Under the pieces are notes generated by a model. It was given only the letters and a program-made list of their open reading frames with translations. It did not search any database and was not told where the DNA came from. Of a stretch of 64,000 nucleotides of DNA, positions 1,097 through 61,570 are shown one piece after another. A program made the translations under genes and the position numbers. The stretch is from Eledone cirrhosa (lineage: Eukaryota), in assembly GCA_964016885.1 (NCBI GenBank), contig OZ024743.1:304048001-304112000 (forward strand), in the 5' to 3' direction. Positions within the stretch are counted from its first letter, which is position 1. Every line of letters starts with the position of its first letter.

Positions 1097-1155
<59 letters not shown>

Positions 1156-1212
1156 AAAGTGAGGGGTTTTTTTTAAATGAAAAATAACCGAGGTGTCCTA
1201 CACGAGTGAATG

Positions 1213-1648
<436 letters not shown>

Positions 1649-5225: not shown

Positions 5226-5266
<41 letters not shown>

Positions 5267-5291
5267 AGGGCACAAGACCTATGTATGTATG

Positions 5292-5326
<35 letters not shown>

Positions 5327-5454
5327 ACACACACACACACATATATATATATATATTTTTTTTTAGTATATGTTGGTTGTATACCAACACCTGAGTATGC
5401 AGGTTGGAGCACTCGACGTTATGCGCAGGTTGGTTTGGTTACTCCGGAGTAATG

Positions 5455-5611
5455 TAAAATAAAGTAAAATAAAAAGTCAAATGTTTAAAATTTAGCTTCG
5501 TTTATTACTGCTGTATATATTTCGGTGACAGCCAAAGATGGCTGTCACCGAAATATATATAGCAGTAATAAACGAAGCTAAATTTTAAACATTTGACTTT
5601 TTATTTTACTT

Positions 5612-5618
<7 letters not shown>
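5455..5618. repeat. 80-bp-arm palindrome (fold-back pseudo-LTR)
   Basis: Centre is GGTGACAGCCA-AAGA-TGGCTGTCACC. Arms carry GAAATATATATAGCAG, homologous to the hammerhead at 41454-41507. Confidence 0.85.
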
Positions 5619-5680
<62 letters not shown>

Positions 5681-9039: not shown

Positions 9040-9635
9040 CAACGGAGGCCGTATGGACTCCGTTTATTCTTGAGACTCGAAACCGATTCGGTAAAGGTAA
9101 CTAGAGTAAGTAAAGTTAATTTTTAAAAATTTAATTTGAAACTTTTTCTTATTTGCTAAACCTTGATTATATATGTTCTGGCTCGTTAATTTATTAACCT
9201 GCCATTTAACCACATTGGCATATGGTTGGACAATAGATGTGTCCCTTGTGCGTATAGGAATATATACTCTATTATTATTCTCCTCTTGGTTGAGTAAAAT
9301 ATTTGGTCGTTCTGACCGCTGCTAGTTATAGCGGTAGCCGACTGACCTCCCTGCCCCCGCCTCTATCTTTAGACTCGGCCCTTGAAAAAATTGATTCCAC
9401 TTCATTTTCTCTCATCTCAGGAACAGTTTTGAATAGCGCCAGTTCGTAATTTGAATTCGGGAATTTTATATTCTTCGAATGAAAAGACCCTTCTGACGAG
9501 AGTTTTTCTTTGCAATGGAGGCCGTATGGATTTTTGAGACTCGAAACCGATTCAGTAAAAGTAACTATAGTAAGTAAAGTTAATTTTTAAAAATTTACTT
9601 TGAAACATTTTCTTATTTGCTAAACCATGATTATA
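9037..9635 (+). mobile_element. Penelope-like partial tandem pseudo-LTR (non-autonomous)
   Basis: 9037-9172 is repeated at 9510-9635. Both ends lie in (TA)n, and a hammerhead is present. A related copy is on the minus strand at ~31098-31250. Confidence 0.75.
9488..9561 (+). ncRNA. Type I hammerhead ribozyme (extended stem II)
   Basis: CCTT-CTGACGA-GAGTTT...AGACTC-GAAAC-CGATTC(A/G)-GTA-AA(A/G)G. The upstream partial copy (9079-9097) has perfect stem III and stem I sequence. Confidence 0.7.
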
Positions 9636-9656
9636 TATATATATATACATATATAT

Positions 9657-9778
9657 AAGAAAAAGTATGACGCCGATGGCAGAGCTCAAGTCGTTTCGAC
9701 TGTTATTTCTGGCTATTTCTATCCAGAAATAGCCGTCGAAACGGCTTGAGCTCTGCCGATCAGGTCATATTTTTCCTA
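9657..9778. repeat. Fold-back palindrome of a pseudo-LTR family also seen at 31666-31775
   Basis: GGCAGAGCTCAAGTCGTTTCGAC...GTCGAAACGGCTTGAGCTCTGCC. The centre is the GGCTATTTCT/AGAAATAGCC stem. Confidence 0.8.
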
Positions 9779-9856
9779 TTACCCACTCTACTACCCTAAG
9801 TATTGCGTACTCTGGTGCGTTATGGTCTATCTGGTTGCTTACCACAACTCCTTTGT

Positions 9857-9942
<86 letters not shown>

Positions 9943-19743: not shown

Positions 19744-19788
19744 GCTTACAATGTTTCTTCCTTACGTAACCGTAGGATTCGTCAGAGC
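19744..19788 (-). ncRNA. Minimal type I hammerhead ribozyme (left-arm pseudo-LTR)
   Basis: Minus strand reads GCT-CTGACGA-A-TCCTACG-GTTA-CGTAAGGA-A-GAAAC-ATT-GTA-AGC. Confidence 0.75.
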
Positions 19789-20512
19789 TATAAAAGGGGT
19801 TTGATTGGTGTTATGGACTCTACCAACTAAACATTCAAGAACAAAGAGTAAAGAGAGTAAAGAGCAAAAGCAGGGGACGATAAGTCTAATTTTGGTGCGG
19901 GAAGGTGTGGGTGTGCGTCCTTGTTTACTAGCTGTGGTCATATTCATTCCCGGGAGTCGAGTAGTTAGTTGAGCCATTGATGGGGAGGCGTCGATAGTAG
20001 GGTGCAGAGGGTGTGCAGAGGCTACACACACACAAAGGGCATACAATATATATATAACCGAGGAGAAAGTACATGAGGTAATTAGAAATGGAAAAAGAGT
20101 AATAATAATAATATATAATTAATAATGTATAATAAGGCATGGGGAAGATTACACTATAATAAGGTATAAAATTAAGAATAAGGTAAAATATAAAGGAGGA
20201 TAGAAGTGAAAATAAGAATAAAGATAACAATATATATATATAAAAAATATATATACATACACACATATATACATATCATACACACACACATACACATATA
20301 CACATACATATATATATACACATACATATCACATATACTCATACACACAATATAATACACATGTATACAATATACATATATATATATACAATATACATGT
20401 ATACAATACACATACACATGCATGCATGCATGCACACACGTACGCACACATATATACATATGTCTGTGTGTGTGTGTGTGAGAGAGAGAAAAGGAGAATA
20501 CACACACACACA

Positions 20513-20553
<41 letters not shown>

Positions 20554-23509
20554 CAACCTTGTAGGGGACTGGTCCACCCTTAGGCTACCTATCTTTCTGG
20601 TATATGGGTTGGGGGGGAAGCTATAGTCAAGGAGGGGTATGTCTAGGTGGGGGTTGCGTAATGTATGTTACGTCTAAGTGCTAGGTTTAAAATAGAAGAA
20701 AGAACTCAGGATTTTGTGTTGGCAAGAGGAGAACATTTCCGATTTCCTGTTAAGCAGGTTCAGTTTAGAGTGTATTATGGCATGGCATTCCAGTAAACAC
20801 AGGTCACAACTCTCGCTCTGCGGTCGGTATGGCGTGGATCTAGTAAGCTTCCTCCAAAAAAGTTTGTATGGTGTACTATTATTTTTTAAAAAGGAGATGT
20901 ATCCCGCCAGTGATGTGGCATTTTTATGCCATCTAATGATATAGAGGCACCTAGTGATAATGCTAGTAACCAAAGTTCGGGAGGTACGCTAACTGATCGA
21001 ACCCGCAGCTGCAATTGTAGGCGGAGTAGTAATTGTCCCCTAAAGGGGGATTGCCTCATGAAAAACATCGTATTTGCATGTGACGTAACCACACACAGCT
21101 CTACCAAAACATATATAGGATCAACTTCCAATACATTTAAAACTAGATTTAACGCGCATATGACCACATTTAGTCACGATAGACAAAAATGCCACCTCAC
21201 TGGCGGGATACATCTCCTTTTTAAAAAATAATAGTACCCCATACAAACTTTTTTGGAGGAAGCTTACTAGATCACCGCCATACCGACCGCAGAGCGGGAG
21301 TTGTGACCTGTGTTTACTGGAATGCCATGCCATAATACACTCTAAACTGAACCTGCTTAACAGGAAATCGGAAATGTTCTCCTCTTGCAACACAAAATCC
21401 TGAGTTTCTTCTTCTATTTTAAACCTAGCACATAGACGTAACATATATTACGCAACCCCCACCCAGACATACCCCTCCTTGACTATAGCTCCCCCCCACC
21501 AACCCATAACCCAGATAGATAGGTAACATAAGGGTGGAACAGTCCCCTACAAGGTTGCTGTTTGTGTGTGTGTGTGTGTGTATTCTCCTTTTCTCTCTCA
21601 CACACACACAAACATATGTATATATGCGTGCGTACGTGTGAGCATGCATGCATGCATGTGTATGTGTATTGTATACATGTATATTGTATATATATATATG
21701 TATATTGTATACATGTGTATTATATTGTGTGTATGAGTATATGTGATATGTATGTGTATATATATATGTATGTGTATATGTGTATGTGTGTGTGTATGAT
21801 ATGTATATATGTGTGTATGTATGTATATTTTTTCTGTAGAAGTCTTCTCTATATGTGGTGTTTGGCATAAATTCCTCCTATAATAATATTCTTTGAGAGG
21901 AGCACGATGTGTAGAATAACACATATGTATTGTCGCAGTTGAAACTGAGAACCACCACCCCTCCTGCTGACCCAAATGTTTACTGAGGACCAGAACACCA
22001 TTCTCCACAATATAAGAGAGGAATACGCTTGCCGAACTATTGATGACCATAACATCACATTCCAAGGTAATGGCAAAACACAGTGAATGCTAAACACGAC
22101 CAGAACACCACAACATGCACATCGGAGCAACAGAGATATAATATCAATAAGCGAATCAATTGAATTTTTTGAGTTGAAATACATATAAATATGTGTCTGT
22201 GTGTATCGGACACACGTACACATAAAGAAACTGCTGACCTAAATGTACCTGTCATGCCTGTCTGAATTCCTAAGAGAATTTTCGGTCAGTTACTATCTTG
22301 ACCGATTACCCTCACAATTACTACGTAGCGGTTCTTGCACGTGACTACTGGACCCGGATGAAACGAAGACGAAGAATTTCCTTGCATACCGTTTTGTACC
22401 ACAGATGTGATCTCACTCTGCCTCGTTAATGTTCAATCGACACCAAAGTTCTACGTTCGGGGCAATAGAATTGAATCCAACCACCGACAACATAGTTGGA
22501 TGACCGATAATCACACCAAACCGGAGTACTGTGATCCTTGTGATTTCGAGATATACAACCACTGACACTGTTACGAAGACCAGAAAACCATACTCCATAA
22601 TATTCAACCAAGTGATTGATTTGTGCGACCAAAATAACACCACACACATATTGAACTAGGAATATTGGATCCTCCGTCAATGTCTGGGTGAGCAAAAATA
22701 GATTTCTATCTGCATTGGAATTTACGAACTTGTGCATCTGCTGTGGTGTCAAAAACAAACGCACATGACCGCACAGATGAACAATGGGCTATGCCACGTG
22801 GGTTGAACCTGCAAGTGAATTGAAGGATGTGTAACTCTGATATACAGATTATTTATTATTAAGATGTATAAACTTGACATAATTATTATCATCTTATATT
22901 CTCTCAACGAATCACATTTGATTATATTTCTCTATCCCGTTTTCTCCCCCCATAATTATAATATTTTTATTTGAAAAAATCGGTTTTTTTACGTTGTGTT
23001 TTTCCCTTCCTAATACTTGCTTATATTTCTTTATATATTCTCTATATATTTTTTATATATATTTTTTTTTATCTTTATTCTTATTTTCACTTCTATCCTC
23101 CTTTATATTTTACCTTATTCTTACTTTTATACCTTATTATAGTGTAATCTTCCCCATGCCTTATTATACATTATTAATAATTATATATTATTATTATTAC
23201 TCTTTTTCCATTTCTAATTACCTCATGTACTTTCTCCTCGGTTATATATATATTGTATGCCCTTTGTGTGTGTGTAGCCTCTGCACACCCTCTGCACCCT
23301 ACTATCGACGCCACCCAATCAATGGCTCAACTAACCACTCGACTCCCGGGAATGAATATGACCACAGCTAGTAAACAAGGACCAACACACTACCCTCCTG
23401 CACCAAAATTAGACTTATCGTCCCCTGCTTTTGCTCTTTACTCTCTTTACTCTTTGTTCTTGAATGTTTAGTTGGTAGAGTCCATAACACCAATCAAAGC
23501 CCTTTTATA

Positions 23510-23553
23510 GCTCTGATGAAATCTACGGTTCGTAAGGAAGAAACATTGTAAGC
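23510..23553 (+). ncRNA. Minimal type I hammerhead ribozyme (right-arm pseudo-LTR)
   Basis: GCT-CTGATGA...GAAAC-ATT-GTA-AGC, the mirror copy of 19744-19788. Confidence 0.7.
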
Positions 23554-24536: not shown

Positions 24537-24544
<8 letters not shown>

Positions 24545-24790
24545 TCGAACAAATTGATGAAGGAGAAGGAAGCCGTTAAAACACATTTATAAAAAGCTCT
24601 TACATATGTTTCGTCCAATGGGGCTTGTCTGAGGCAGTTAAATAGGCAAATAATGAAATAATGAACACTTATTAAATTATTTGCCTATCTAACTGCCTCA
24701 GACGAGCCCCATTGGGCGAAACATATGCAAGAGCTTTTTATAAATGTGTTTTAACGGCTTGCTTCTCTTTTGTCAATTATTTCGATTATA
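24537..24790. repeat. Inverted pseudo-LTR pair, each arm with a hammerhead-like motif (variant core CAGACGA)
   Basis: 24537-24654 mirrors 24676-24790. The motif is CAGACGA-GCCC-CATT-GGGC-GAAAC-ATAT-G(T/C)A at 24699-24729. Confidence 0.75.
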
Positions 24791-37157: not shown

Positions 37158-37244
37158 TAATAATAAATTTGAAGACTAAAATCCAAAGAGGGCTCGATAA
37201 GGATAAATAAATATCAAATATATAAGAACCGTAGAGTAAATATT

Positions 37245-37778
37245 TATTAAAATAACAGATTAAAGTTTAAGCAAAGGATCGCTGCTTTCACCCTTAACGG
37301 GATCTTCTGAAACTAAAAAAGTCAATCTGTGAACGCAGAAGTGAATATTTCAAAAAAAGTTGCTGCCGGAGGAAGACAGGAAGTCGATACTTTGGTTCGT
37401 GGAAACGTTCCCTGGCAAAGAACGAAAAAAAAACGAAGATAATACGTCATTATTTGGAGAGCTGAAAACAATTACACGCAAAGACAAGACCACGTTTATG
37501 GTATAAATGAAGTCGTAGACTAATAAACGTGGTCTTGTCTTTGCGTGTAATTGTTTTCACCGCTCCAAATAATGACGTATTATCTTCGTTTTTTTCCGGT
37601 TCTTTTCCAGGGAACGATTCCACGAACCAAAGTATCATCTTCCTCTCTTCCTCCGGTTGCAATGTTTTTTGAAATATATACTTCTGCGTTCACAGATTGA
37701 CTTTTTTAGTTTCAGAAGATCCCGTTAAGGGTGAAAGCAGCGATTCTTTGCTTAAACTTTAATCTGTTATTTTAATAT
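37245..37778. repeat. ~255-bp-arm imperfect palindrome (inverted pseudo-LTRs) with variant hammerhead (CAGAAGA) in each arm
   Basis: 37248-37499 mirrors 37523-37775. The motif is GTTT-CAGAAGA-TCCC-GTTAA-GGGT-GAAA-GCA...TGC-TT-AAAC at 37709-37757. Confidence 0.8.
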
Positions 37779-37792
37779 ATATATATATATAC

Positions 37793-39102: not shown

Positions 39103-39595
39103 AGTGGTGTGTGTGTGTGTGTGTGTGTATGTGTGTGTGTGTGTGTAGCAATATCTGTGCGTGTGAAAAAGGAATAACAAAAATAGATGTCAATTGAGAA
39201 AAGAGCGGCAATAATATATTATTTATTTATGTCCATGCGCGAAACCATCGCTACAGAAGGTTAATAAAGGTTAATAAAAGGCTGATGCAACGAACCTCAG
39301 ATTTAAACATATATTAGCACTGTTACAGATGTATAGCGCCTGATGATGTGTCGCAACGTTTATTCCTCTTGAATTCTGGTGATATGGTTAACATTGAAAA
39401 ACACACACACACACATATATACATGGTTGGTTGGTTTTGACTTCTATATTGTTTGTATCGCCATAGTTAATTTATTTGGCAATCAATGATTATCATTGCA
39501 TAAGGCGGAACAATTTTTCTCGGTATATATATATATACCGAGAAAAATTGTTCCGCCTTATGCGCAAAAAGGTGAAACGATTGTTCTCGGTATGG

Positions 39596-41350: not shown

Positions 41351-41407
<57 letters not shown>

Positions 41408-41411
<4 letters not shown>

Positions 41412-41830
41412 CAAAACATAAGTCAATTGCATGAACTCATAATCCTTTATTTACTGCTATATATGTTTCGATGATAGCCATTGAGTGGCGATGACCTCAT
41501 CAGGCAGGTAGTCAGTTCTTAGATATGCCAGCTCTGTGTTTATGGTGTTGATGGTTTTAGAGCCTTGGGACATATGAGCTTGTTGGGGATAATTTCATGT
41601 AGTCAGCAGGAATAATCTTAATTCTCATTGGTCAGTTTGTAGATGCTTGTAGGGTTGGTATTTCACCTCACAAAGGCAAGTGGTGTTGCAAAGTTCAAAC
41701 AGTCAGGCAAGATGACAATAGTTCCATATGACTGATTTTTACAAAAAGCATTCCTGGTCAGATATATATTCAATTGAGGTTTATAGTATGCAATTCGATA
41801 CTACAGGTCATTCTTAAATTGAGGAATTTA
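41408..41830 (-). mobile_element. Penelope-like 3' remnant with pseudo-LTR
   Basis: IAYYKPQLN (GIY-YIG C-terminal-like) upstream of a hammerhead. Ends in (TA)n. Confidence 0.6.
41454..41507 (-). ncRNA. Type I hammerhead ribozyme
   Basis: Minus strand reads CTGC-CTGATGA-GGTCATCGCCA-CTCAA-TGGCTATCATC-GAAAC-ATAT-ATA-GCAG. Confidence 0.75.
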
Positions 41831-46717: not shown

Positions 46718-46978
46718 TTTATTTATTAACCACAAGGGTTTACATAAAGTAGACATTAAGGACAGTGCAGGACAATGCAGGACGGTACAAATGGGCATTT
46801 CTGCGTGTAAAAAAAACAAAAACAGAGGATGTAACAAAAATAACAATGAAAATAACAATGAAAAATTCCCCAATAGGGGGGAGACTTCGGAGGGACATTT
46901 GTGGAGAAAGCCCAGTAAAAAGCCACAATGACCCTGACCACCAAGGCAAGTGCCCTCTCCCAGTTTTCCACCTTTAGT

Positions 46979-49900
46979 TTACAGATATATACTCAGAGTC
47001 GGCCCATTCACTCGGGCCATTCTTGCTTCTCTCACCCATCTTTCAACAAAATGCTGGGAAGAGAGCACTTCCTTCTCTACTCTGATTTTCCTTTTCAAAT
47101 GAAATTTGAAAAAGTCAATCAGAGCATCACCGAAGAGGTAAGTGCTCGTCTTCAGCCCTTTCAAACGTGTCCACCATACTATCTCTTTCGCCATGGCCAC
47201 CAGACAGATAAAAACTGCCTGCCCTTCCCGGCTAAAGGAGGAGGGCGGGGAAATCCTCACGATAGACTCAGATGATAGCTGGATCCGTCCTAAACGCGAC
47301 AGCAGGTGTTCGACATAAACCCACAAGTCAGCAATTTTCGGACACTGGACGAGTGCGTGCAGGACGGTTTCGTCGCCCTGCGCGCATCTCGGACATGCCC
47401 GGCTGACGGCACCTCCATGCCTGTAGAGTTTATCCCGAACTGGCAAGGCTCCTCGGTAGCACTGCCAGGCCAGAGATTTCTGGAAGTTGTCCATAGGCCC
47501 TGGCCCGAAAGTTCTTCCGAAGAGATTGGCTAGTTGATTTTCGTCGACGCCTAGAGTTTCCCCAAGTACGTCGTCGCTCTTCCCCTCCACTAATCCTCTA
47601 TAGAACGCCGAGGTGGAGTTTCCACCGATCACATTGCCCGATTGGTCGAGGGCTGTGAGCGCCTGAAGACATTCCAGTCTCCAGGCGCTCCCTCTCGGTC
47701 TTCGCTTGACCCAGGACTGCAGCTCCGTCAAGGAAACGAGCTGGGGAAAAACGCGTCTAGCAAACGGCGACCACACCTGATCACCGTCGAGGAAGAGGTG
47801 GAGATGTCGTAGCCTGAGCGCGTGCCTGCGCATCATCAGCCACGGCATGCCCAGCCCTCCACGTAGCGGGTGTTGACAACAGATGGACCGCCTGACCATC
47901 GGAGCACGTCCCTTCCACAAAAAGCGAAAGAGCAAACGCTCCAGCGCAGTCAGGCGAGGCTTAGGACAAGGTACGACGGTTAGGCGGTAGCAGATGACAG
48001 ACGCGATGTACGCGTTAGCCACCTCCGCTCGACCTTTCAGGGATAGCTTCCTCTCCGCCCATTTCTGGGTGAGAGAAGCCACCCTGCTCGTCACCTCGTC
48101 CCAGTTTTTGTCCGTCTGGAGGTCCGGACCGAACCAGACCCCTAGCAATTTAACCGGTCCGTCCGTCCAGCGCCCGACGACGCTGTTGGACGGCATGGAC
48201 CTGCCTCTCCAGGTGCCGAGCTGCAGGCCCACTGACTTTTCCTGGTTGATCATTGCTCCTGTCACCGCTTCGTATTCTCTTAGTGTAGTGCCGATCGCCT
48301 CGATGTGTTTGGCGTTCGACACCACTACGGTGACATCGTCCGCGTATGCTGATACGGATCTTCCGCATCCTAGTTCGCGCGGGACCCCCCTCAACGTCTC
48401 CAGTTTGTGCAGTAATGGCTCGAGAGTCAATACGTACAAGAGGGACGAGAGGGGACATCCTTGGCGGACCGAGCGCATGATGTTGAACGGTTCCGACAGG
48501 TGACCGTTCACTCTCACCACAGAGCAGATGTCGCTGTGCATGGCAGCGATCCAGCCTCTGAAGACGGGCCCAAAGCCAGCCGCCCTCAGGACTGCCGCTA
48601 GGTAACGATGGTCGACCCTATCGAAAGCTTTCGACTGATCTAAATTGATCAAGGACCCACCCGTGCTAGGTTCCCTAGCTACCCTCTCTACGATGTATCG
48701 CATGAGGTGGAGGTTGTCGTGGATGGATCTGTCGGGAATGGCGCATGTCTGCGCCTCTCCCACCAGACCACCAACGACAAGCGCCAACCTCTTTGCTAGC
48801 ACCTTGGCCAAAATCTTAAACTCTGTGTTTAGCAGAGTTATGGGCCGGAAATTTTCTATGTTATCCCCCTTGTTCGGATCCTTTCTCAGCAGTGCCACCG
48901 CTCCTCGGCTCACAGAACTGGGAATTCTCCCGTTCTGTTGCCAGTTGCAGTAGACGTCCGCCAAGAGGCCTCCAAACAAGTCTGGCATCTGTACGTAAAG
49001 TTCATAGGGCAGACCATCCAAACCAGGCGATTTACCCCTTGTGCAGCCAGACATTGCCTACCTTACTTCAGCGGCTGTTATCGGCTTTTCGCAACACTTC
49101 GCCTCAGTGGCCGAGAGCCGCGGCAGTCCGTCGAGGTAGACACTAAAGTCCATCCCTCTACCCGGCCCACCGCTGCCCCCGAACAGCTGAGCGAAGTGTC
49201 GCTGAAAAGCTTCACACATTTGCCCGGGATCGAGTAGCATGCGCCCGTCGTGGTCCACCAAAGACCGGATCGTGGCTTTGTTGCCACGACGCGCCTCCGC
49301 CACTCGGGCCCATTGAACGGCTTTCGTCCCCTCGTGTCTGAGAGCACGCACCCTTGCTCTGACAACGCAGCCTTCGTGCTTTGCATTGAAGAATTGGTCA
49401 AGGGCCAATTTCGCCGCAAGCACGTCGGTCGCAATGCCTTTGCTAAGCGCCTCGTCTAATTTTCTAACTAGTTCTCCCTCTGCTCTATTTTTCTCTATTG
49501 CTAAAGCCTTACTAAATCTAATCGATTCTATTCTAATCGCTCTTTTCAGAGCAAACCACCACTTGTTGTTGACGATGGCCCCCGTCAACGCCCGCTTAAC
49601 TAGTTCGCTAATCCGGTCTCTGTAGGCCTTGCGCGCTGGTAAGGACGCGTTTAGCTTCCAGTAGCCGGGTCCTCGTCTATGAAGCCTATCTAAGTCAAGC
49701 ACACAGATCACGAATTTGTGGTCCGTGTAGCTGACTATCTTGAATTGTGGACAGCCTATGCTAGACCTATCTATTTCCCTACAAAATACTCTATCTAGAT
49801 ATGATCTGGATGACCCTATGCGGTTTGTCCAAGTCCACATTGGCACATTCGGGAAATCCAATCGGTACCTGTCAGACAGTTCAAAACGCCTGAGCAGGTT

Positions 49901-50398
49901 GGTGAGGCTCTTGCACCCTCCACCCCTATCCGCTAATCCCACACAGTCCCAGCGTGCATCTAAGATCCCGTTCCAGTCGCCCACTAACACTAAAGAGCGG
50001 GACGTTCCAAGAAAGGTCTCCAGACGCCGGAAGAAATCAGGCCGCCCTGCTCCTGTCGGGGCATAGACGGCCACTAGCCTGAAAGCTTGCCCGTATCCGC
50101 TGGTCACGTCCAGCACCACCAGCTTACCCTCTGGGTCCAGGAAGATGGCCCGTATGGCGAGATCCAAACCTCTCCGAAAAAGTACAGCAATTCTTCCACC
50201 GGATCCAGGACGGCTGGGAGATGCGTACACATCGTAGCCGCCGAAGATCGGTGCGAAGGCCCGTGCTTCGGAGATTCTGGTCTCGCTGATGGCCACTACA
50301 TCTATGTTTAGTGACCTGAGGTCGTTGAGCAGGTGACCCTGCTTCCATGACGACCCCAAGCCACGCGCATTTATGCTGCCTATTCTGAGTGAGGTCAT
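46979..50398 (-). pseudogene. ORF2 (APE endonuclease + RT + C-terminal zinc finger), 1139 codons interrupted by one in-frame TAG at 49058-49060
   Basis: SINARGL, VAISET, VGDWNGILD, SYLDR, YTDHK; KSPGLDG, FRPITLLN, DQSKAFDRVDH, VRQGCPLS, AYADDV; CPRC..DETVLHALVQC. The TAG is GAG (Glu) in copies 2 and 3. Confidence 0.93.
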
Positions 50399-50433
50399 GT
50401 TTAAAATAGAGTGGAAAAGATGGGAAAGACCAC

Positions 50434-52530
50434 TTACCGTACTTTTGGTAGAGGAGGGATGGTTTTTACATCCCTTTTCACTTGATCGTCTGGTGAAGGG
50501 ACCGTTGAATCGTCCCTTCGGCAGGTCGTCGGCTCTTCTAAGAGAATGTCTGAGTATACTCTTCGATTGATGGTTCCTCCCAGGTCCCTGAAATCACCAA
50601 CTGCGTTGGGGAATTTCGTTTTAATATTTGTGTATTGTTTCTGTGCTATTTTTAGCAGTCTTATGTTAGTTGGCGTTTTGATTGGTGCTGGTATTATGTA
50701 GTCCTGTTGTGAAATGTCTGTGTGTTCAATTATGTAAGTCATTAGTTTCTTGTTGTGTGTATTTATTGCCGTGCATTTGTTTTTCTGGGGGTGGGGTGTG
50801 GTTCTGCTATTTTCTTGTCGTTGTTGCTGGGTGTGTGTGTTTTGTTGTTGTGTTTGCGATGTTGGTGCTTGTGGTGGTGGTGTTGAAGGTGTTGTTGGCG
50901 GTGGGGTTGTCGCCGGTGGTGATGGTGGCGCTAGTGTGGGTGGTGATGGTGTTGGTGTTGTTGCTGCTGTGGGTTTCTTTGCAGTAGACTTTACCCTTTT
51001 CTCATTTCTTTCCTCCCTTTTCAAAGGCGACGATGCGCTGCTTCTGCGTTTGTGCCTTCTTACGACCTTTTGCCATCTCTCTCCCACCTCACACTCCATG
51101 TCTGATTCTGTGAGGTCGGGGAGGGGTACCAACTCCACTCTTTCACTTGTTGTTGTTGGTGATGTTTGCACTGGAGTCTCTGTTGCAGCTGCATTTGGTA
51201 TTGCTGTTGTTGTTGTTAGTATTTCCACTGCTGCTGCTGTTTTTGATTTCCGTGGAGTGGGTATGGGTGCCACGGGCCTATCGTTCCTGGTTGCCACTTG
51301 TCCTGTTGCTGGTAGCCGTGGAGCCGGATTCGGAAGGAGGGGGGTTTTCTTCTTTTCCAGGGTCTTCTCGTTGCAGAAGGCCCTGAGGTGAGTCTTCGAT
51401 CCACAGCGAAAGCATTTCGGGCGTTTGCCCTCAACACTTATGGGCAGTTGAGTGCCGTTATCGAATTCTATCACATCCGGGATAGCTTCGATGAACTCCT
51501 GGTTGGTTTGGATTAGCATCTCAATGGAGGAGCCGACCCAATCTTCTCTTACTTTTTTCTGTACTTGCAGTACAGTTGTTTTGTCCTCGATTCCGACGAG
51601 GACAGACGCGGCCAGCCAAGAAGGGGTCATTCCGGGGGGGACGTGGGTCAGTTTGACCCTCACAATTTTTTGCCCACAGTAGGAGGGCACCAACACCATT
51701 TCCTCGCTCCTTAGGGTCACTACTGATTGGGCCTTTGCCTCCTGGGGTGTGGCAAAAAGTACGTCTACGGTGGCATATTTTTTGCCTCGGGTGATGTGCG
51801 TTTTCCGCTGCCACACAGACCCCAAGGCTTTTTGTATTTGGGCCTCTGTGGCTCTTTCCACCCTACGGGATTTTGTACTTACTGTACGGTACGTGACCGT
51901 ACAGTGCTCTTGGGTTTCGAAAAAATTTTTCGCTGCCTTGCAGATTGCTCGGTGTCCGTTCTTTGTCACCATCTTCTTCGCTTCCTCTAATTCCTCATTT
52001 GTTATGAGGATTGTTTCCAAGTTTTTCGCAATACCTGCAAATGAGATTGGTTTTTCTCTGCTGTTGTTGTTGTCGTCAGAGCTGCTGGTACTTTTGTTGT
52101 TGCTGCAGGTACTACGACTACTGCCTCCGCCGCTGTTGCTGTGGTTGTTGTTGGTGTTGCTGCTGCTAATGCTGTTGTTGTTTATGCTGCTGGTGATGCT
52201 GTTGCGGCTGCTACTGTTGTTTTCATTGTCACTGTTGCTGTTGTTATTACGGCTGCTACTGCTATTATTCCTGACGTCAGACGAATGAACTGGGTTTTCG
52301 TATTTCCCGCACACCTGTTTCGTCGCTGTCGTCGTCGTCGTGGAGAAACCTTGCACGCTTTGCACGAGACTTTTCTTTTCTTTCGTCACTTGCGAAAGAG
52401 AAGGGAGGGAGAGAGACACATTTAAAGAAGGGAGGGAGAGAGACAATCTTCTCTCTGCTGTAGTGATGATTGAGGAAGAAGAAGACGGAATGAGTGGGAG
52501 TGACGTATGAAATTTCTTTTTCGCAGCCAT
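50434..52530 (-). CDS. Retrotransposon ORF1 (gag-like nucleic-acid-binding protein), 698 aa, intact
   Basis: CFRCGSKTHLRAFC (CX2CX4HX4C) knuckle, with N/S-rich and P/T-rich low-complexity segments. Ends 35 bp before the ORF2 ATG. Confidence 0.9.
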   Translation of the reverse strand: MAAKKKFHTSLPLIPSSSSSIITTAERRLSLSLPSLNVSLSLPSLSQVTKEKKSLVQSVQGFSTTTTTATKQVCGKYENPVHSSDVRNNSSSSRNNNSNSDNENNSSSRNSITSSINNNSISSSNTNNNHSNSGGGSSRSTCSNNKSTSSSDDNNNSREKPISFAGIAKNLETILITNEELEEAKKMVTKNGHRAICKAAKNFFETQEHCTVTYRTVSTKSRRVERATEAQIQKALGSVWQRKTHITRGKKYATVDVLFATPQEAKAQSVVTLRSEEMVLVPSYCGQKIVRVKLTHVPPGMTPSWLAASVLVGIEDKTTVLQVQKKVREDWVGSSIEMLIQTNQEFIEAIPDVIEFDNGTQLPISVEGKRPKCFRCGSKTHLRAFCNEKTLEKKKTPLLPNPAPRLPATGQVATRNDRPVAPIPTPRKSKTAAAVEILTTTTAIPNAAATETPVQTSPTTTSERVELVPLPDLTESDMECEVGERWQKVVRRHKRRSSASSPLKREERNEKRVKSTAKKPTAATTPTPSPPTLAPPSPPATTPPPTTPSTPPPQAPTSQTQQQNTHTQQQRQENSRTTPHPQKNKCTAINTHNKKLMTYIIEHTDISQQDYIIPAPIKTPTNIRLLKIAQKQYTNIKTKFPNAVGDFRDLGGTINRRVYSDILLEEPTTCRRDDSTVPSPDDQVKRDVKTIPPLPKVR

Positions 52531-53020
52531 GTTGTTTTTTGTTTAAAATGAATATTGGGTACAAAACCCCAATAACTGGTTATTTAACCCCGAAGGGCCA
52601 AATAACGGACAGAAAGACCCCTCTCACGAGGAGGAGGGTGTCTTTATCTACAAGTTGGTCTAAGTTTTAAACAATTTACAATTGTTAAAGCGTTCAAAAT
52701 TTACAGTACCTTACAGAGCCGAGCCTCCGTCAACCATAGCATTCAATAATAATAATAATAATAATAATAATGATTTCTTTATTAACCACAAGGGTTTACA
52801 TAAAGTAGACATTAAGGACAGTGCAGGACAATGCAGGACGGTACAAATGGGCATTTCTGCGTGTAAAAAACAAAAACAGAGGATGTAACAAAAATAACAA
52901 TGAAAAATTCCCCAATAGGGGGGAGACTTCGGAGGGACATTTGTGGAGAAAGCCCAGTAAAAAGCCACAATAACCCTGACCACCAAGGCAAGTGCCCTCT
53001 CCCAGTTTTCCACCTTTAAT

Positions 53021-56000
53021 TTACAGATATATGCTCAGAGTAGGCCCATTCACTCGGGCCATTCTTGCTTCTCTCACCCATCTTTCAACAAAATGCTGGG
53101 AAGAGAGCACTTCCCTCTCTACTCTGATTTTCCTTTTCAAATGAAATTTGAAAAAGTCAATCAGAGCATCATCGAAGAGGTAAGTGCTCGTCTTCAGCCC
53201 TTTCAAACGTGTCCACCATACTATCTCTTTCGCCATGGCCACCAGGCAGATAAAAACTGCCTGCCCTTCCCGGCTAAAGGAGGAGGGCGGGGCAATCCTC
53301 ACGATGGACTCAGATGATAGCCGGATCCGTCCTAAACGCGACAGCAGGTGTTCGACATAAACCCACAAGTCAGCAATTTTCGGACACTGGACGAGTGCGT
53401 GCAGGACGGTTTCGTCGCACTGCGCGCATCTCGGACATGCCCGGCTGACGGCACCTCCATGCCTGTAGAGTTTATCCCGAACTGGCAAGGCTCCTCGGTA
53501 GCACTGCCAGGCCAGAGATTTCTGGAAGTTGTCCATAGGCCCTGGCCCGAAAGTTCTTCCGAAGAGATTGGCTAGTTGATTTTCGTCGACGCCTAGAGTT
53601 TCCCCAAGTACGTCGTCGCTCTTCCCCTCCACTAATCCTCTATAGAACGCCGAGGTGGAGTTTCCACCGATCACATTGCCCGATTGGTCGAGGGCTGTGA
53701 GCGCCTGAAGACATTCCAGTCTCCAGGCGCTCCCTCTCGGTCTTCGCTTGACCCAGGACTGCAGCTCCGTCAAGGAAACGAGCTGGGGAAACACGCGTCT
53801 AGCAAACGGCGACCACACCTGATCACCGTCGAGGAAGAGGTGGAGATGTCGTAGCCTGAGCGCGTGCCTGCGCATCATCAGCCACGGCATGCCCAGCCCT
53901 CCACGTAGCGGGTGTTGACAACAGATGGACCGCCTGACCATCGGGGCGCGTCCCTTCCACAAAAAGCGAAAGAGCAAACGCTCCAGCACAGTCAGGCGAG
54001 GCTTAGGACAAGGTACGACGGTCAGGCGGTAGCAGATGACGGACGCGATGTACGCGTTAGCCACCTCCGCTCGACCTTTCAGGGATAGCTTCCTCTCGGC
54101 CCATTTCTGGGTGAGAGAAGCCACCCTGCTCGTCACCTCGTCCCAGTTTTTGTCCGTCTGGAGGTCCGGACCGAACCAGACCCCTAGCAATTTAACCGGT
54201 CCGTCCGTCCAGCGTCCGACGACGCTGTTGGACGGCATGGACCTGCCTCTCCAGGTGCCGAGCTGCAGGCCCACTGACTTTTCCTGGTTGATCATTGCTC
54301 CTGTCACCGCTTCGTATTCTCTTAGTGTAGTGCCGATCGCCTCGATGTGTTTGGCATTCGACACCACTACGGTGACATCGTCCGCATATGCTGATACGGA
54401 TCTTCCGCATCCTAGTTCGCGCGGGACCCCCCTCAACGTCTCTAGTTTGTGCAGTAATGGCTCGAGAGTCAATACGTACAAGAGGGACGAGAGGGGACAT
54501 CCTTGGCGGACCGAGCGCATGATGTTGAACGGTTCCGACAGGTGACCGTTCACTCTCACCACAGAGCAGATATCGCTGTGCGTGGCAGCGATCCAGCCTC
54601 TGAAGACGGGCCCAAAGCCAGCCGCCCTCAGGACTGCCGCTAGGTAACGATGGTCGACCCTATCGAAAGCTTTCGACTGATCTAAATTGATCAAGGACCC
54701 ACCCGTGCCAGGTTCCCTAGCTACCCTCTCTACGATGTATCGCATGAGGTGGAGGTTGTCGTGGATGGATCTGTCGGGAATGGCGCATGTCTGCGCCTCT
54801 CCCACCAGACCACCAACGACAAGCGCCAACCTCTTTGCTAGCACCTTGGCCAAAATCTTAAACTCTGTGTTTAGCAGAGTTATGGGCCGGAAATTGTCTA
54901 TGTTATCCCCCTTGTTCGGATCCTTTCTCAGCAGTGCCACCGCTCCTCGGCTCACAGAACTGGGAATTCTCCCGTTCTGTTGCCAGTTGCAGTAGACGTC
55001 CGCCAAGAGGCCTCCGAACAAGTCTGGCATCTGTACGTAAAGTTCATAGGGCAGACCATCCAAACCAGGCGATTTACCCCTTGTGCAGCCAGTCATTGCC
55101 TCCCGTACTTCAGCGGCTGTTATCGGCTTTTCGCAACACCTCGCCTCAGTGGCCGAGAGCCGCGGCAGTCCGTCGAGGTAGACACTAAAGTCCATCCCTC
55201 TACCCGGCCCCCCGCTGCCCCCGAACAGCTGAGCGAAGTGTCGCTGAAAAGCTTCACACATTTGCCCGGGATCGAGTAGCATGCGCCCGTCGTGGTCCAC
55301 CAAAGACCGGATCGTGGCTTTGTTGCCACGACGCGCCTCCGCCACTCGGGCCCATTGAACGGCTTTCGTCCCCTCGTGTCTGAGAGCACGCACCCTAGCT
55401 CTGACAACGCAGCCTTCGTGCTTTGCATTGAAGAATTGGTCAAGGGCCAATTTCGCCGCAAGCACGTCTCGCAATGCCTTTGCTAAGCGCCTCGTCTTAT
55501 TTTCTAACTAGTTCTCCCTCTGCTCTATTTTTCTCTATTGCTAAAGCCTTACTAAACCTAATCGATTCTATTCTAATCGCTCTTTTCAGAGCAAACCACC
55601 ACTTGTTGTTGACGATGGCCCCCGTCAACGCCCGCTTAACTAGTTCGCTAATCCGGTCTCTGTAGGCCTTGCGCGCTGGTAAGGACGCGTTTAGCTTCCA
55701 GTAGCCGGGTCCTCGTCTATGAAGCCTATCTAAGTCAAGCACACAGGTCACGAACTTGTGGTCCGTGTAGCTGACTATCTTGAATTGTGGACAGCCTATG
55801 CTAGACCTATCTATTTCCCTACAAAATATTCTATCTAGATATGATCTGGATGACCCTATGCGGTTTGTCCAAGTCCACATTGGCACATTCGGGAGATCCA
55901 ATCGGTACCTGTCAGACAGTTCAAAACGCCTGAGCAGGTTGGTGAGGCTCTTGCACCCTCCACCCCTATCCGCTAATCCCACACAGTCCCAGCGTGCATC

Positions 56001-56438
56001 TAAGATCCCGTTCCAGTCGCCCACTAACACTAAAGAGCGGGACGTTCCAAGAAAGGTCTCCAGACGCCGGAAGAAATCTGGCCGCCCTGCTCCTGTCGGG
56101 GCATAGACGGCCACTAGCCTGAAAGCTTGCCCGTCTCCGCTGGTCACGTCCAGCACCACCAGCTTACCCTCTGGGTCCAGGAAGATGGCCCGTATGGCGA
56201 GATCCAAACCTCTCCGAAAAAGCACAGCAACTCCTCCACCGGATCCAGGACGGCTGGGAGATGCGTACACATCGTAGCCGCCGAAGATTGGTGCGAAGGC
56301 CCGTGCTTCGGAGATTCTGGTCTCGCTGATGGCCACTACATCTATGTTTAGTGACCTGAGGTCGTTGAGCAGGTGACCCTGCTTCCATGACGACCCCAAG
56401 CCACGCGCATTTATGCTGCCTATTCTGAGTGAGGTCAT
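53021..56438 (-). pseudogene. ORF2 of copy 2, broken by TTA>TAA (55497-55499) and a 2-nt deletion (~55467)
   Basis: Span is 3418 bp versus 3420 bp in copy 1. APE (313 aa) and RT (817 aa) ORFs are otherwise open. Confidence 0.93.
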
Positions 56439-56473
56439 GTTTAAAATAGAGTGGAAAAGATGGGAAAGACCAC

Positions 56474-58570
56474 TTACCGTACTTTTGGTAGAGGAGGGAT
56501 GGTTTTTACATCCCTTTTCACTTGATCGTCTGGTGAAGGGACCGTTGAATCGTCCCTTCGGCTGGTCGTCGGCTCTTCTAAGAGAATGTCTGAATATACT
56601 CTTCGATTGATGGTTCCTCCTAGGTCCCTGAAATCACCAACTGCGTTGGGGAATTTCGTTTTAATGTTTGTGTATTGTTTCTGTGCTATTTTTAGCAGTC
56701 TTATGTTAGTTGGCGTTTTGATTGGTGCTGGTATTATGTAGTCCTGTTGTGAAATGTCTGTGTGTTCAATTATGTAAGTCATTAGTTTCTTGTTGTGTGT
56801 GTTTATTGCCGTGCATTTGTTTTTCTGGGGGTGGGGTGTGGTTCTGCTATTTTCTTGTCGTTGTTGCTGGGTGTGTGTGTTTTGTTGTTGTGTTTGCGAT
56901 GTTGGTGCTTGTGGTGGTGGTGTTGAAGGTGTTGTTGGCGGTGGGGTTGTCGCCGGTGGTGATGGTGGTGCTGGTGTGGGTGGTGATGGTGTTGGTGGTG
57001 TTGCTGCTGTGGGTCTCTTTGCAGTAGACTTTACCCTTTTCTCATTTCTTTCCTCCCTTTTCAAAGGCGACGATGCGCTGCTTCTGCGTTTGTGCCTTCT
57101 TGCGACCTTTTGCCATCCCTCTCCCACCTCACACTCCATGTCTGATTCTGTAAGGTCGGGGAGGGGTACCAGCTCCACTCTTTCACTTGTTGTTGTTGGT
57201 GATGTTTGCACTGGTGTCTCTGTTGCAGCTGCATTTGGTATTGCTGTTGTTGTTGTTAATATTTCCACTGCTGCTGCTGTCTTTGATTTCCGTGGAGTGG
57301 GTATGGGTGCCACGGGCCTATCGTTCCTGGTTGCCACTTGTCCTGTTGCTGGTAGCCGTGGAGCCGGATTCGGAAGGAGGGGGGTTTTCTTCTTTTCCAG
57401 GGTCTTCTCGTTGCAGAAGGCCCTGAGGTGAGTCTTCGATCCACAGCGAAAGCATTTCGGGCGTTTGCCCTCAACACTTATGGGCAGTTGAGTGCCGTTA
57501 TCGAAGTCTATCACATCCGGGATAGCTTCGATGCACTCCTGGTTGGTTTGGATTAGCATCTCAATGGAGGAGCCGACCCAATCTTCTCTTACTTTTTTCT
57601 GTACTTGCAGTACAGTTGTTTTGTCCTCGATTCCGACGAGGACAGACGCGGCCAGCCAAGAAGGGGTCATTCCGGGGGGGACGTGGGTCAGTTTGACCCT
57701 CACAATTTTTTGCCCGCAGTAGGAGGGCACCAACACCATTTCCTCGCTCCTTAGGGTCACTACTGATTGGGCCTTTGCCTCCTGGGGTGTGCCAAAAAGT
57801 ACGTCTACGGTGGCGTATTTTTTGCCTCGGGTGATGTGCGTTTTCCTCTGCCACACAGACCCCAAGGCTTTTTGTATTTGGGCCTCTGTGGCTCTTTCCA
57901 CCCTACGGGATTTTGTACTTACTGTACGGTACGTGACCGTACAGTGCTCTTGGGTTTCGAAAAGATTTTTCGCTGCCTTGCAGATTGCTCGGTGTCCGTT
58001 CTTTGTCACCATCTTCTTCGCTTCCTCTAATTCCTCATTTGTTATGAGGATTGTTTCCAAGTTTTTCGCAATACCTGCAAATGAGATTGGTTTTTCTCTG
58101 CTGTTGTTGTTGTCGTCAGAGCTGCTGGTACTTTTGTTGTTGCTGCAGGTACTACGACTACTGCCTCCGCCGCTGTTGCTGTGGTTGTTGTTGGTGTTGC
58201 TGCTGCTAATGCTGTTGTTGTTTATGCTACTGGTGATGCTGTTGCGGCTGCTACTGTTGTTTTCATTGTCACTGTTGCTGTTGTTATTACGGCTGCTACT
58301 GCTATTATTCCTGACGTCAGACGAATGAACTGGGTTTTCGTATTTCCCGCACACCTGTTTCGTCGCTGTCGTCGTCGTCGTGGAGAAACCTTGCACGCTT
58401 TGCACGAGACTTTTCTTTTCTTTCATCGCTTGCGAAAGAGAAGGGAGGGAGAGAGACACATTTAAAGAAGGGAGGGAGAGAGACAATCTTCTCTCTGCTG
58501 TAGTGATGATTGAGGAAGAAGAAGACGGAATGAGTGGGAGTGACGTATGAAATTTCTTTTTCGTAGCCAT
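56474..58570 (-). CDS. Retrotransposon ORF1 of copy 2, intact (698 aa from the ATG at 58570)
   Basis: Colinear with copy 1 ORF1, and the CCHC knuckle is conserved. Confidence 0.9.
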   Translation of the reverse strand: MATKKKFHTSLPLIPSSSSSIITTAERRLSLSLPSLNVSLSLPSLSQAMKEKKSLVQSVQGFSTTTTTATKQVCGKYENPVHSSDVRNNSSSSRNNNSNSDNENNSSSRNSITSSINNNSISSSNTNNNHSNSGGGSSRSTCSNNKSTSSSDDNNNSREKPISFAGIAKNLETILITNEELEEAKKMVTKNGHRAICKAAKNLFETQEHCTVTYRTVSTKSRRVERATEAQIQKALGSVWQRKTHITRGKKYATVDVLFGTPQEAKAQSVVTLRSEEMVLVPSYCGQKIVRVKLTHVPPGMTPSWLAASVLVGIEDKTTVLQVQKKVREDWVGSSIEMLIQTNQECIEAIPDVIDFDNGTQLPISVEGKRPKCFRCGSKTHLRAFCNEKTLEKKKTPLLPNPAPRLPATGQVATRNDRPVAPIPTPRKSKTAAAVEILTTTTAIPNAAATETPVQTSPTTTSERVELVPLPDLTESDMECEVGEGWQKVARRHKRRSSASSPLKREERNEKRVKSTAKRPTAATPPTPSPPTPAPPSPPATTPPPTTPSTPPPQAPTSQTQQQNTHTQQQRQENSRTTPHPQKNKCTAINTHNKKLMTYIIEHTDISQQDYIIPAPIKTPTNIRLLKIAQKQYTNIKTKFPNAVGDFRDLGGTINRRVYSDILLEEPTTSRRDDSTVPSPDDQVKRDVKTIPPLPKVR

Positions 58571-58814
58571 GTTTTTTTTGTTTAAAATGAAATTTTGGGT
58601 ACAAAACCCCAATAACTGGTTATTTAACCCCGAAGGGCCAAATAACGGACAGAAAGACCCCTCTCACGAGGAGGAGGGTGTCTTTATCAACAATTTGGTT
58701 CAAGTTTTAAACAATTTACAATTGTTTTAACGGTTAAGAATTACTATACCTTACAGAGCCGAGCCTCCGTCAACCATGGCATTCAATAATAATAATAATA
58801 ATAATAATAATAAT

Positions 58815-61512
58815 CAGAGCCTTGGTGCAAGAAACGACTGAGTGGTCAAATCAGGGAAATAAGAAATGACATTGGAAAGCTTGAGTCCCTACTGAATGGG
58901 ACACTAAAAAACATAGACACTAAAAATAGACTGGAAATATAGTACAAAGGAAAAAGCTAAATATTATCATAGAGGAACTGAAGCAACGCATTGTAGCAAA
59001 GAGTGAAAAAATCAGGCGATACGAGAACAGAGTCAGTCAGTATAGACAGAACCTCATGTTCGACAACAACCAGAAGATGCTGTTTGGACACCTTGAAGGG
59101 AAAGAAAGAGGCAACGACTTGATCCCTGAGGCGGAACAAACTAAAACATTCTGGAGAGGAATATGGGAGCAGGATGTTAAAAATAATGACCAGGCAGTGT
59201 GGATTGAGACAGTACAGAAGAAGATTAATGAACAGGCACACTAACAAACCGATTTGAGTATCACAGTTGAAACTCTTAAGGGGCAGTCCCAAAAAACTAA
59301 CCAACTGGAAATCACCAGGCCCAGATGGTGTGCAGGGGTATTGGATTAAAAATATAACATCCCTCCACCCGAAACTGACAACCATGTTCAATGACTGCTT
59401 GATGTCAGGTGAGGTACCAGAGTGGTTGACAAAAGTTACCACAGTTCTGATAATGAAAAACCGAATCAAGGGTAATGATGTTACCAACTATAGATCTATC
59501 ACATCTCTGTCCGTAATGTGGAAACTGTTGACAAACATTATGTCTGAGGAAATCTACCATCACCTCCACACAAACAACGTGTTACCGGACGAACAGAAAG
59601 GATGCCGAAAGAAGTCACGTGGTACAAAGGACCAGTTACTTATTGATAAGAGGGTAATGAGGAATTGCAAGAGGAGACACACTGGTCTTGCCATGGCATG
59701 GATAGACTACAAAAGGCATTTGACATGGTGCCTCATTCTTGGATCACCACAAGCCTGGAGTTCTTCAAGGTAGCAGATAACATCAGACAGTTGTTGGGCA
59801 AAAGTATGAAGTCCTGGGAAACAGAGTTAACATCAGCTGGAGAATCCATGGGAAGCGTGAAGATCAAGAGAGGAATCCTTCGGGGAGATAGTCTGTCCCC
59901 TCTGTTGTTTGTCCTTGCCCTGATGCCCGTGACCAGTGTACTGCGAAAAGTGAGAGCAGGATACAGGTTGGGAAAGGGAAGGCTTATCATCAATCACCTC
60001 CTCTTCATGGACGATCTTAAGCTCTTCGGAAAGAGTGAGAAGGAGTTGGATGTGCTTGTTGACACTGTCCGTATTTTCAGCAATGGTATATGTATGCAAT
60101 TTGGTATTAGTAAGTGTGGAGTCCTTGTGATGAAGAGGGGTAAATTGAGCAGAAGTGACGGAATCCAGGTACAAACAGGTGAGATGATAAAGAAATTGAC
60201 TCTGAAGAAGGATACAACTATTTGGGTGTTCTGGAGGCTGATGACATCAAGAACAAAAACATGAAGGAATTGATAAAACTGAATACATTCGGAGAGTAAG
60301 GAGCGTATTAAAGTCACATCTGAACAGTAGGAATGCCATAAATGCAGTAAATTCCCGAGGTGTGTCTATTATTAGGTACAGTGCGGGAATTCTGAGATGG
60401 AATGTTGCTGAACAAAAAGAAATGGATAGGAAGACTAGGAAGTTATTGACTATCTACAACATGTTCCACAAGAGGAGTGATGTCGATTGACTCTACTTAA
60501 GGAGATATCAAGGTGGAAGAGGTCTTATCAGCATAGATGACTGTGTTCAGATGGAGAAAACAACCTACACAAATACGTGACTGATAGTAAGGAGCCAATG
60601 CTCAGAACTGTACTGAAGGAGGGGACAATAGACCAGGGGATGCCCAAGGAGGAAATAACATCAAGGAGGAAGAGCAGCGTTCAGGAAAAATCCCTTCATA
60701 GTACCTTCTTTGAGAAAACTGAATTCAGAGATCCACAGACATGGAACTGGTTGAAAAGAGGAGACCTTAAAAAGGCTACAGAAGGAATGTTAATGGCTGC
60801 GCAAAAGCAGGCCCTCAAAACGAAGTGGTTGAAACACCATATTTACAAGAAGGAGGCTAGCCCACTGTGTAGGATCTGTGAAGAGAGAGAGGAGACTGTG
60901 GCGCACTTTGTATCCGAGTGTAAACACCCAGCCCAGACTCACTATAAGGCCTGGAGATATGATGTGATGGGCAGGGTGATCCACTTGCATCTATGCAAGG
61001 TAAACAATTTACCACATTCTGAGAAGTGGTATGAGCATAAGCCAGAGTCGGTGATAGAAAACGATCAGGTGAAGGTGCTGTGGGATTTTAGAATACAGAC
61101 GGACAAGAAACTGGAACACAATAGACCTGACCACGTGGTTGTGGACACAGAAAAAGATCGTGCCTGATTGTGGATGTGGCCTGCCCATTCGACACGAGAG
61201 TGCAAGAGAAGGAGAGGGAGAAAATTAACCGATACCAGGACTTAAAGTGGGAGGTAAAAAGGATTTGGAACTGCCATGAAGTCAAAGTGGTCCCGATTGT
61301 GATAAGCGCACTAAGTACTATCTCAAAAAGTTTCCAGGGATTGTTAAAGAAAATTGGCCCCTTCACGCTTTTTGGAACGCTTCAAAAGGCATGCTTGCTG
61401 GGAATAGCAAGAACACTCCGATACGTCATGAATATCTGAGGCTGCAAGTAGTGGCTTGATATTCATTTCAACAAACTTTCCAGTTAACTAACATCTATGA
61501 CTGAGACTCAAA

Positions 61513-61513: not shown

Positions 61514-61550
<37 letters not shown>

Positions 61551-61570
61551 TTAATAATAATAATAATAAT

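Follow-up and report, generated by a model that had tools for sequence, protein, structure and literature searches.

The palindrome at positions 5455–5618 of a 64,000-nt stretch of DNA (the window) from the 3.0-Gb genome of Eledone cirrhosa is, judged from its sequence, a head-to-head, 5'-truncated fragment of a Penelope-like pseudo-LTR (pLTR). We consider it probable that the insertion arose by twin priming, with two cDNAs of one short RNA joined head to head, here via the self-complementary stem II of a hammerhead motif. The centre of such palindromes appears to be family-specific, and in three families (A, B and C) it coincides with the common 5' end of the copies. Stem II is a minor local junction hotspot, accounting for ~1% of the inversions in family A, the parent family.

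The palindrome at 5455–5618 and its parent element

The two 80-bp arms are identical at 79 of 80 positions (sole mismatch at 5513) and face each other across a 4-nt AAGA loop, and the centre lies in hammerhead stem II, as the initial annotation had proposed. Its reading that the arms keep the 3' half of the hammerhead alone was also borne out. The right arm contains, in this order, the stem II 3' strand, GAAA (5550–5553), a palindromic TATATA, TA and GCAGT; the stem I strand lies at 5562–5566 and cleavage is predicted after 5561. A CUGANGA/CTGANGA core and the stem I 5' strand are absent from both arms of 5455–5618. The symmetry, however, holds for the arms alone. An extension of ~90 nt on the left had been overlooked, and the insertion as a whole (5365–5618) is asymmetric, with a tail on one arm only (Table 1). 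The reversed pLTR plus tail of locus L143 aligned with 5360–5549 at 90%, loose read ends fall at 5365, and in direct-repeat copies the tail region continues into the 5' UTR and the start of the ORF. TA repeats abut both ends of the insertion, with TA/CA repeats at ~5227–5357 on the left; because of these flanks a target-site duplication would be hidden. The C of the stem II 5' strand of the parent is replaced at 5527 by a G that stems from the inverted arm. The left arm is therefore a copy of the stem II 3' strand, and the join lies within 7 nt beside the loop. An identical 7-nt overlap was measured at the junction of locus L183. The AAGA loop in the junction has the sense orientation of the short arm on the right.

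Table 1. Features of the window that relate to the palindromes and their parents
Positions	Strand	Feature	Remark
1154–1497		Family C palindrome, tail on left	Arms 1220–1357 and 1360–1497
5365–5454	-	Tail of pLTR (putative long reverse-transcription start)	~90 nt, left arm only
5455–5534	-	Left arm, inverted	Stem II 3' strand, GAAA, predicted cleavage site, stem I 3' strand, T-rich segment
5528–5538	+	Junction	7-nt overlap ACAGCCA common to both arms, and parent stem II loop AAGA
5539–5618	+	Right arm	3' half of type I hammerhead, finishing at putative short start site
5619–5670		(TA)n target microsatellite, right side	Abuts right arm
9657–9857		Family B palindrome, tail on right	Arms end in 3' side of stem II loop
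31665–31759	+	Family B pLTR, uninverted	Complete hammerhead layout with a slightly degenerate core; parental type for 9657–9778
39538–39590		Family D short head-to-head remnant	Centred in loop of minimal hammerhead
41391–41507	-	Sister-family pLTR end	Hammerhead motif intact, with core CTGATGA; feature terminates in (TA)n

Uninverted copies of family A contain stem I ACTGC, the core CTGAAGA, stem II GGTCACAGCCA-AAGA-TGGCTGTCACC and then GAAA, a hammerhead motif predicted to fold into stems I and II. Genome-wide, 7,210 exact stem II cores and 6,300 copies with core and stem II intact were counted, and the family A pLTR has about 7,000 genomic copies. Longer loci (L143, L144) comprise a pLTR, the tail, a short 5' UTR, an ORF, a 3' UTR and a second pLTR without tail. 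At L143 a direct pLTR with tail is followed by the ORF start and by a 3' pLTR with the short end; at L142 and L144 the 5' copy is inverted and tailed. The ORF encodes a PLE-type reverse transcriptase (RT), a Cys-rich linker and a GIY-YIG-like end. A 481-aa frame at L036 carries a YRDD motif, and among the Atlas clusters closest to it are some that are RT-named or bear RVT_1 (0.93–0.97). Pfam returned no match for this frame; the family A copies read are frameshifted. Downstream of the RT, PF01541 scored below its cut-off on a frameshifted segment (E 0.0048, 17.6 bits; cut-off 22.6), and a VYG...YIG motif is visible there, directly preceded by a CNC...CPL...C motif. A Zn-finger-like Cys motif within the linker that joins RT to endonuclease (EN) is described as a Neptune/Nematis feature in the accessible part of PMC8557442. 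Direct or inverted pLTRs flanking the ORF, a tail at one end and a hammerhead motif in the pLTR were all found in family A, as in EN+ Penelope-like elements (PLEs). Both the parent layout and the arm content agree with the earlier classification of the palindrome as a Penelope-like pLTR derivative without an intact ribozyme.

The homologous hammerhead to which the palindrome had been compared (41454–41507) does exist, but its core differs from that of the parent. With 72–80% identity over 65–120 nt to an autonomous family A copy, it is a diverged sister family, related to the parent of 5455–5618 but not that parent. An Rfam scan of the window gave sub-threshold miRNA-like hairpin matches only and no hammerhead family.

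Junction positions in families A to D

Family A coordinates are given relative to the predicted cleavage site. A genome-wide search for tailed head-to-head inversions of this family with gaps ≤480 nt returned 1,671 matches, and 90 of the first 100 places were taken. The resulting 91 rows gave 88 mapped inversions after three had been dropped (two loci tailed on both sides and seen twice, one mis-aligned row). All 88 lie in the first 174 Mb of contig C1 and were chosen for their tail and for gaps ≤480 nt. Their centres are highly varied. At least one arm ended at TCATATGA (-173 to -164), ~120 nt upstream of the core, in 58 of the 88, and both arms did so in 23. Solo copies shared this 5' end (8/16 begin between -170 and -164); family A was without a TATA-like box at -30. 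A centre in stem II was seen once (1/88), and eight other inversions have one end in stem II with a different geometry. Exact symmetric junctions were counted 377 times genome-wide at TCATATGA vs at most 20 times at stem II. The proposal that the stem II hairpin defines the inversion breakpoint is contradicted by these counts.

The exact inverted stem II form had 22 matches, comprising 17 simple palindromes, three complex ones and two otherwise intact hammerheads in which the loop alone is flipped (L122 and L139, among ~6,300 intact copies); a few further palindromes carry mismatches. Seven of the first 50 (of 180) short-spaced family A inversions had the stem II spacing (six of 84 nt, one of 85 nt), ~6-fold the uniform expectation (p ~1e-4 vs uniform spacing). 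The enrichment at stem II expected by the initial annotation thus stands as a local effect and does not extend to the mapped inversions at large. Stem II is also the strongest cDNA hairpin of the pLTR (-9.6 kcal/mol, 30-nt windows).

Junctions of the mapped inversions were of several types (n = 88): an overlap of 1–8 nt (40), an overlap of more than 8 nt (5), a blunt join (12) or an insert (31). Both arms stop at -167 in L161 and L237, where a foreign insert of 7 or 18 nt separates them. Short inverted templated inserts were common at upstream-site junctions (L173, L214, L217, L234, L242, L244). Snap-back from stem II, another element of the earlier proposal, was recognizable at three loci (L132, L141 and L038/L145), where ~16–30 nt were copied back before rejoining, but it does not amount to a rule. 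To judge from these copies, snap-back is real but secondary.

Three further palindromes of the window had been said to share the geometry of 5455–5618, and they fared differently. At 1213–1504 (family C) the geometry is another one: both arms retain a complete U3:A8-type hammerhead motif, ~40 nt upstream of which the palindrome is centred. This centre is the common 5' end of the family, shared by inverted and solo copies, which begin at an A lying 30 nt after TATAAAA (seen in one uninverted parent, L090). At 39538–39590 (family D) the centre does fall in the stem II loop, but this stem has 2–3 bp and did not make the palindrome. Family D ends are scattered from the loop to ~70 nt upstream, with no single 5' end (by eye). 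In families A, B and C, solo copies without an inverted partner share their 5' ends with the inversions.

The arms of 9657–9778 (family B) lack the 5' half and end in the loop, as claimed, but the join is not a stem II pairing; the junction holds a short templated insert. Family B is abundant: 52,348 exact matches to a 24-mer were counted genome-wide, and at least 14,379 palindromes (gaps ≤50 nt) have their centre in the region of the stem II loop. The stem II 5' strand is retained by 2,033 copies. In the parent, which shows a hammerhead layout, stem II spans ~50 nt. In inverted context, 54 of 55 arms ended within -18 to +2 of the anchor, in the 3' part of the stem II loop. Neither the loop nor the 5' strand was kept at any of the 50 junctions listed (by eye). 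The arms end before copying reaches the stem II 5' strand; the position is right but the stem does not prime. Apical-hairpin fold-back was considered for family B and dropped, as the junctions do not retain that loop. The ends cluster at TTAGTCC/TCAGTCC, 29–31 nt after a TATA-like stretch. We take this motif to be initiator-like and the stretch, on the stem II 5' strand, to be a TATA-like box. The putative TATA box and initiator overlap the strand and loop of hammerhead stem II. Family B palindromes are probably centred in the stem II loop because transcription starts there.

Two more palindromes, at 24541–24789 and 37237–37785, have hammerhead-like motifs in their arms with CAGANGA replacing CTGANGA; their centres lie 35 nt and ~190 nt, respectively, upstream of these ribozyme-like motifs. 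A tail-like extension is seen on the right of 24541–24789. Just upstream of the family B palindrome, 9488–9555 holds a hammerhead-like motif (CTGACGA, long stem II, GAAA). A perfect 33-bp tail-to-tail palindrome centred on (TA)7 occupies 39498–39563; private changes are common to its two copies, and one of its arms falls outside the family D remnant. The large inverted repeat at 20237–21838 has a 259-nt spacer with what seems to be a Cys-linker and a GIY-YIG-like fragment (by eye), and appears to be an asymmetric inversion of another Penelope-like family. It is surrounded by near-identical hammerhead motifs 3.7 kb apart, at 19750–19790 (- strand) and 23500–23550 (+ strand). On the - strand, 46900–64000 contains tandem non-LTR retrotransposon-like ORFs whose translations have endonuclease- and RT-like N-termini.

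Proposed joining of two primed cDNAs, and the alternatives

Inversions of all four families have one tailed and one short end (A 29/32, B 29/31, C 14/15, D 23/24; 95/102 in total), and both kinds of end abut (TA)n. One tailed and one short arm were likewise seen in each of the 21 simple stem-II palindromes inspected; L038, in the 22nd row, is complex. A MITE reading was rejected on the unequal ends and the heterogeneous centres, which do not fit the equal TIRs of a clonal family. In addition to the palindromes, 71 loci matched a pattern in which an inverted piece of tail lies within 55 nt of the start of a sense pLTR. A few of these tail-only loci carry extra inverted inserts, and all 20 that were fetched end at the short site. 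Inverted and uninverted pieces are joined via microhomology or short inserts, overlaps at the junctions being 0–8 nt. The pieces overlap on the RNA in palindromes, including 5455–5618, and do not in the tail-only class. Most tail-only pieces share no sequence, so that neither is a fold-back copy of the other. Such structures could also be what is left of a full palindrome that has since lost an arm.

The two arms of a copy have the same source. Among 112 inversions, arms of the same copy differed at 25 of 1140 subfamily-diagnostic positions, vs 37% in random pairs, and shared 30 rare alleles; in many copies the arms have remained identical. At least two diagnostic differences separated the arms in 7/112, and four 'differences' in stem-II copies are the loop; this result neither shows two templates nor separates twin priming from fold-back. 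Indeed, same-source arms fit fold-back or later gene conversion equally well. With a single source for both arms, one RNA, or the RNAs of one locus, would serve twice.

In the twin-priming model, both strands of the (TA)n target would be nicked and each nick would serve as primer on the same short RNA, the long and the short end representing two reverse-transcription starts. At the long end, GA or GATA repeats are often found between tail and (TA)n (L371–L390, L142–L143), the RNA continues TCTATCTA, and TA also follows the short end. These ends suggest priming by TA pairing with slippage at the (TA)n target. The cDNAs would usually run off at the RNA 5' end, placing the centres ~120 nt upstream of the core in family A, ~40 nt upstream of the motif in C and inside the stem II loop in B; the RNA 5' ends are inferred from where copies end and from motifs that resemble TATA boxes and initiators. 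The two cDNAs would next be linked end to end, either through microhomology or with an insert. In ~1% of family A inversions the join is at stem II, putatively through direct annealing of the two cDNA ends or, alternatively, through a brief snap-back of one cDNA that makes homology to its partner. Either route would still require a second, tail-primed cDNA. The palindrome at 5455–5618 may have formed via snap-back homology or direct stem annealing, for which the data are alike.

The initial annotation had 5455–5618 made by self-priming of the cDNA on stem II, and a related, single-cDNA fold-back has the tail-primed strand snap back at its 3' end, either at the RNA 5' end or in stem II, and copy itself, with an endonuclease trimming the second arm at the tail boundary ahead of the join. 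Self-priming was already proposed for palindromic Penelope inversion junctions (PMC3846280, in the part available). The subfamily markers and rare alleles common to both arms, the frequent short inverted templated inserts, the three loci with stem II snap-back copies and the strength of the stem II hairpin all speak for fold-back, yet we consider it unlikely. It predicts the loop or spacer always on the tailed arm, and the reverse was found in 12 of 21 stem-II palindromes (loop in sense with the short arm, including 5455–5618, vs nine with the long arm) and in 37 of the 56 asymmetric inversions. The 5' reach was greater in the short arm in 37 inversions, greater in the long arm in 19 and equal in 32 (n = 88); the 37:19 bias has p 0.02, dropping to 30:19 with p 0.15 when seven cases favoured by the search anchor are subtracted. 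A short-start cDNA cannot gain a tail by self-copying, and a long-start cDNA must own the loop or spacer. Self-priming alone thus fails for 5455–5618, where the arm with the sense loop is the short one and the tail, which copying back cannot add, is on the other. Loop polarity could, however, have been scrambled after insertion (cf. the flipped loops at L122 and L139). Fold-back is also unable to produce the tail-only pieces; the strongest hairpin is used in 1/88 family A inversions, and the stem II loop is kept in 0 of the 50 family B junctions listed. A stronger form, in which the stem II hairpin is a programmed second-strand primer that defines the inversion point across families, is very improbable. 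The local enrichment in family A and the at least 14,379 family B loci are in line with it; the single stem II centre among 88, the centres 35–190 nt upstream of the ribozyme-like motifs in family C, 24541–24789 and 37237–37785, and the family B arms that stop before the stem II 5' strand are not.

Perfect palindromes are unstable, and a longer inverted repeat might have been remodelled after insertion, its centre later collapsing via hairpin-tip cleavage or template switching in replication and landing on stem II or other microhomologies. The loop flips in two intact copies and the resemblance of the junctions to microhomology-mediated end joining, compatible with any break, lend this some plausibility, but we regard it as quite improbable. 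Solo copies of families A, B and C have the same 5' ends without an inverted partner, many arm pairs are still identical, and run-off more simply accounts for inversions in which one arm ends precisely at -167 and the other variably; the pattern of long and short ends at the insertion would remain unexplained. Least credible of all is a clonal, MITE-like family from one master copy, or a set of sequencing fold-back chimeras. Short inverted repeats in TA context and the ~20 loci with a common centre could be taken for either. The stem-II palindromes, however, belong to several subfamilies, carry arm-symmetric variants and show both loop polarities, and the centres of the inversions vary. A library chimera is unlikely, since the ~20 loci are dispersed, with flanks that are not mirrored and ends that are unequal. 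Read support for the window copy itself is weak: short reads on the left arm were found in X24 (3–4 of 3,102), X1 and X3 (one sample) contributed a single contig apiece, and no listed independent read or contig bridges the 5455–5618 stretch.

Relation to known elements and implications

Pen families of Adineta vaga share with the Eledone families the pLTR-ORF-pLTR organization, an RT with C-terminal GIY-YIG (GIY-YIG-like in Eledone), a head-to-head inverted 5'-truncated copy, a tail at one end, junction palindromes and microsatellite targets, as far as the available text of PMC3846280 and PMC8557442 goes. In Eledone, unlike in these families, most copies are tiny ORF-less palindromes at thousands of loci, and the tail is longer (~90 nt vs 30–40 nt). 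The same portions of these papers attribute the junction to self-priming on an antisense template and the tail to endonuclease resolution, whereas the Eledone junctions point to two joined cDNAs. Minimal type I PLE hammerheads with a long helix II, a short helix I, a palindromic helix III and a U3-A8 variant are described in PMC4209133, which already noted opposite-strand pairs 100–700 bp apart. The window copy differs from them in having no catalytic 5' half, and the accessible sections of PMC4209133 contain no junction mapping. Inverted pLTRs, the one-sided tail, junction palindromes, opposite-strand hammerheads and self-priming are thus already in print (PMC3846280, PMC8557442 and PMC4209133, in the parts available). 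On twin priming or hammerhead fold-back in PLEs, a search of open-access papers (main text) gave nothing on point.

The closest biochemical likeness is Poseidon PAc of Anolis, whose protein in vitro nicks both strands of its target and extends them from two starts within the RNA that delimit the tail (PMC11167929, available part). An AT-rich target is common to both systems, as would be two tail-bounding RT starts, nicking and extension of both target strands and an uncleaved RNA template. That account, in the portion available, is without head-to-head inversions or junction positions, and the Cys-rich RT-EN linker of family A is of the Neptune/Nematis kind, unlike that of Poseidon PAc. Drosophila Penelope has an internal pLTR promoter with an initiator (PMC2377424, part of the text), and tandem derivatives are dealt with in the accessible part of bioRxiv 10.64898/2026.07.22.740005.

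In the twin-priming model the Eledone cDNAs mostly overlap and start at two fixed internal sites, which would yield palindromes, unlike in L1. Twin priming of L1, described by Ostertag and Kazazian in 2001, reportedly joins inverted and uninverted pieces from two target primers by microhomology. Its pieces are said to be non-overlapping parts of the RNA that end in poly(A).

For PLEs at large we put forward, with slightly more doubt than confidence, symmetric twin priming on pLTR-initiated RNA from the starts that bound the tail, with the join at the transcript 5' end. In family B the core promoter would lie inside the ribozyme, so that short transcripts could not self-cleave and would have seeded more than 14,000 ribozyme-less palindromes. 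The stem II rule would be striking if it were general. As it is, 5455–5618 is an ordinary kind of object, and the putative family B start inside the ribozyme is the most unusual lead.

The origin of PLE inverted repeats with a tail at one end is named as an open question in the accessible text of PMC8557442. Thousands of junctions in Eledone offer a testable answer, namely two primers, two cDNAs and one join. This model ties in with the two-start, two-strand chemistry seen in vitro (PMC11167929, available part) and would account for the way in which a retroelement fills a genome with short palindromes that look like MITEs. If it is true, the centres of these palindromes would be a genomic readout of the start site of each family.
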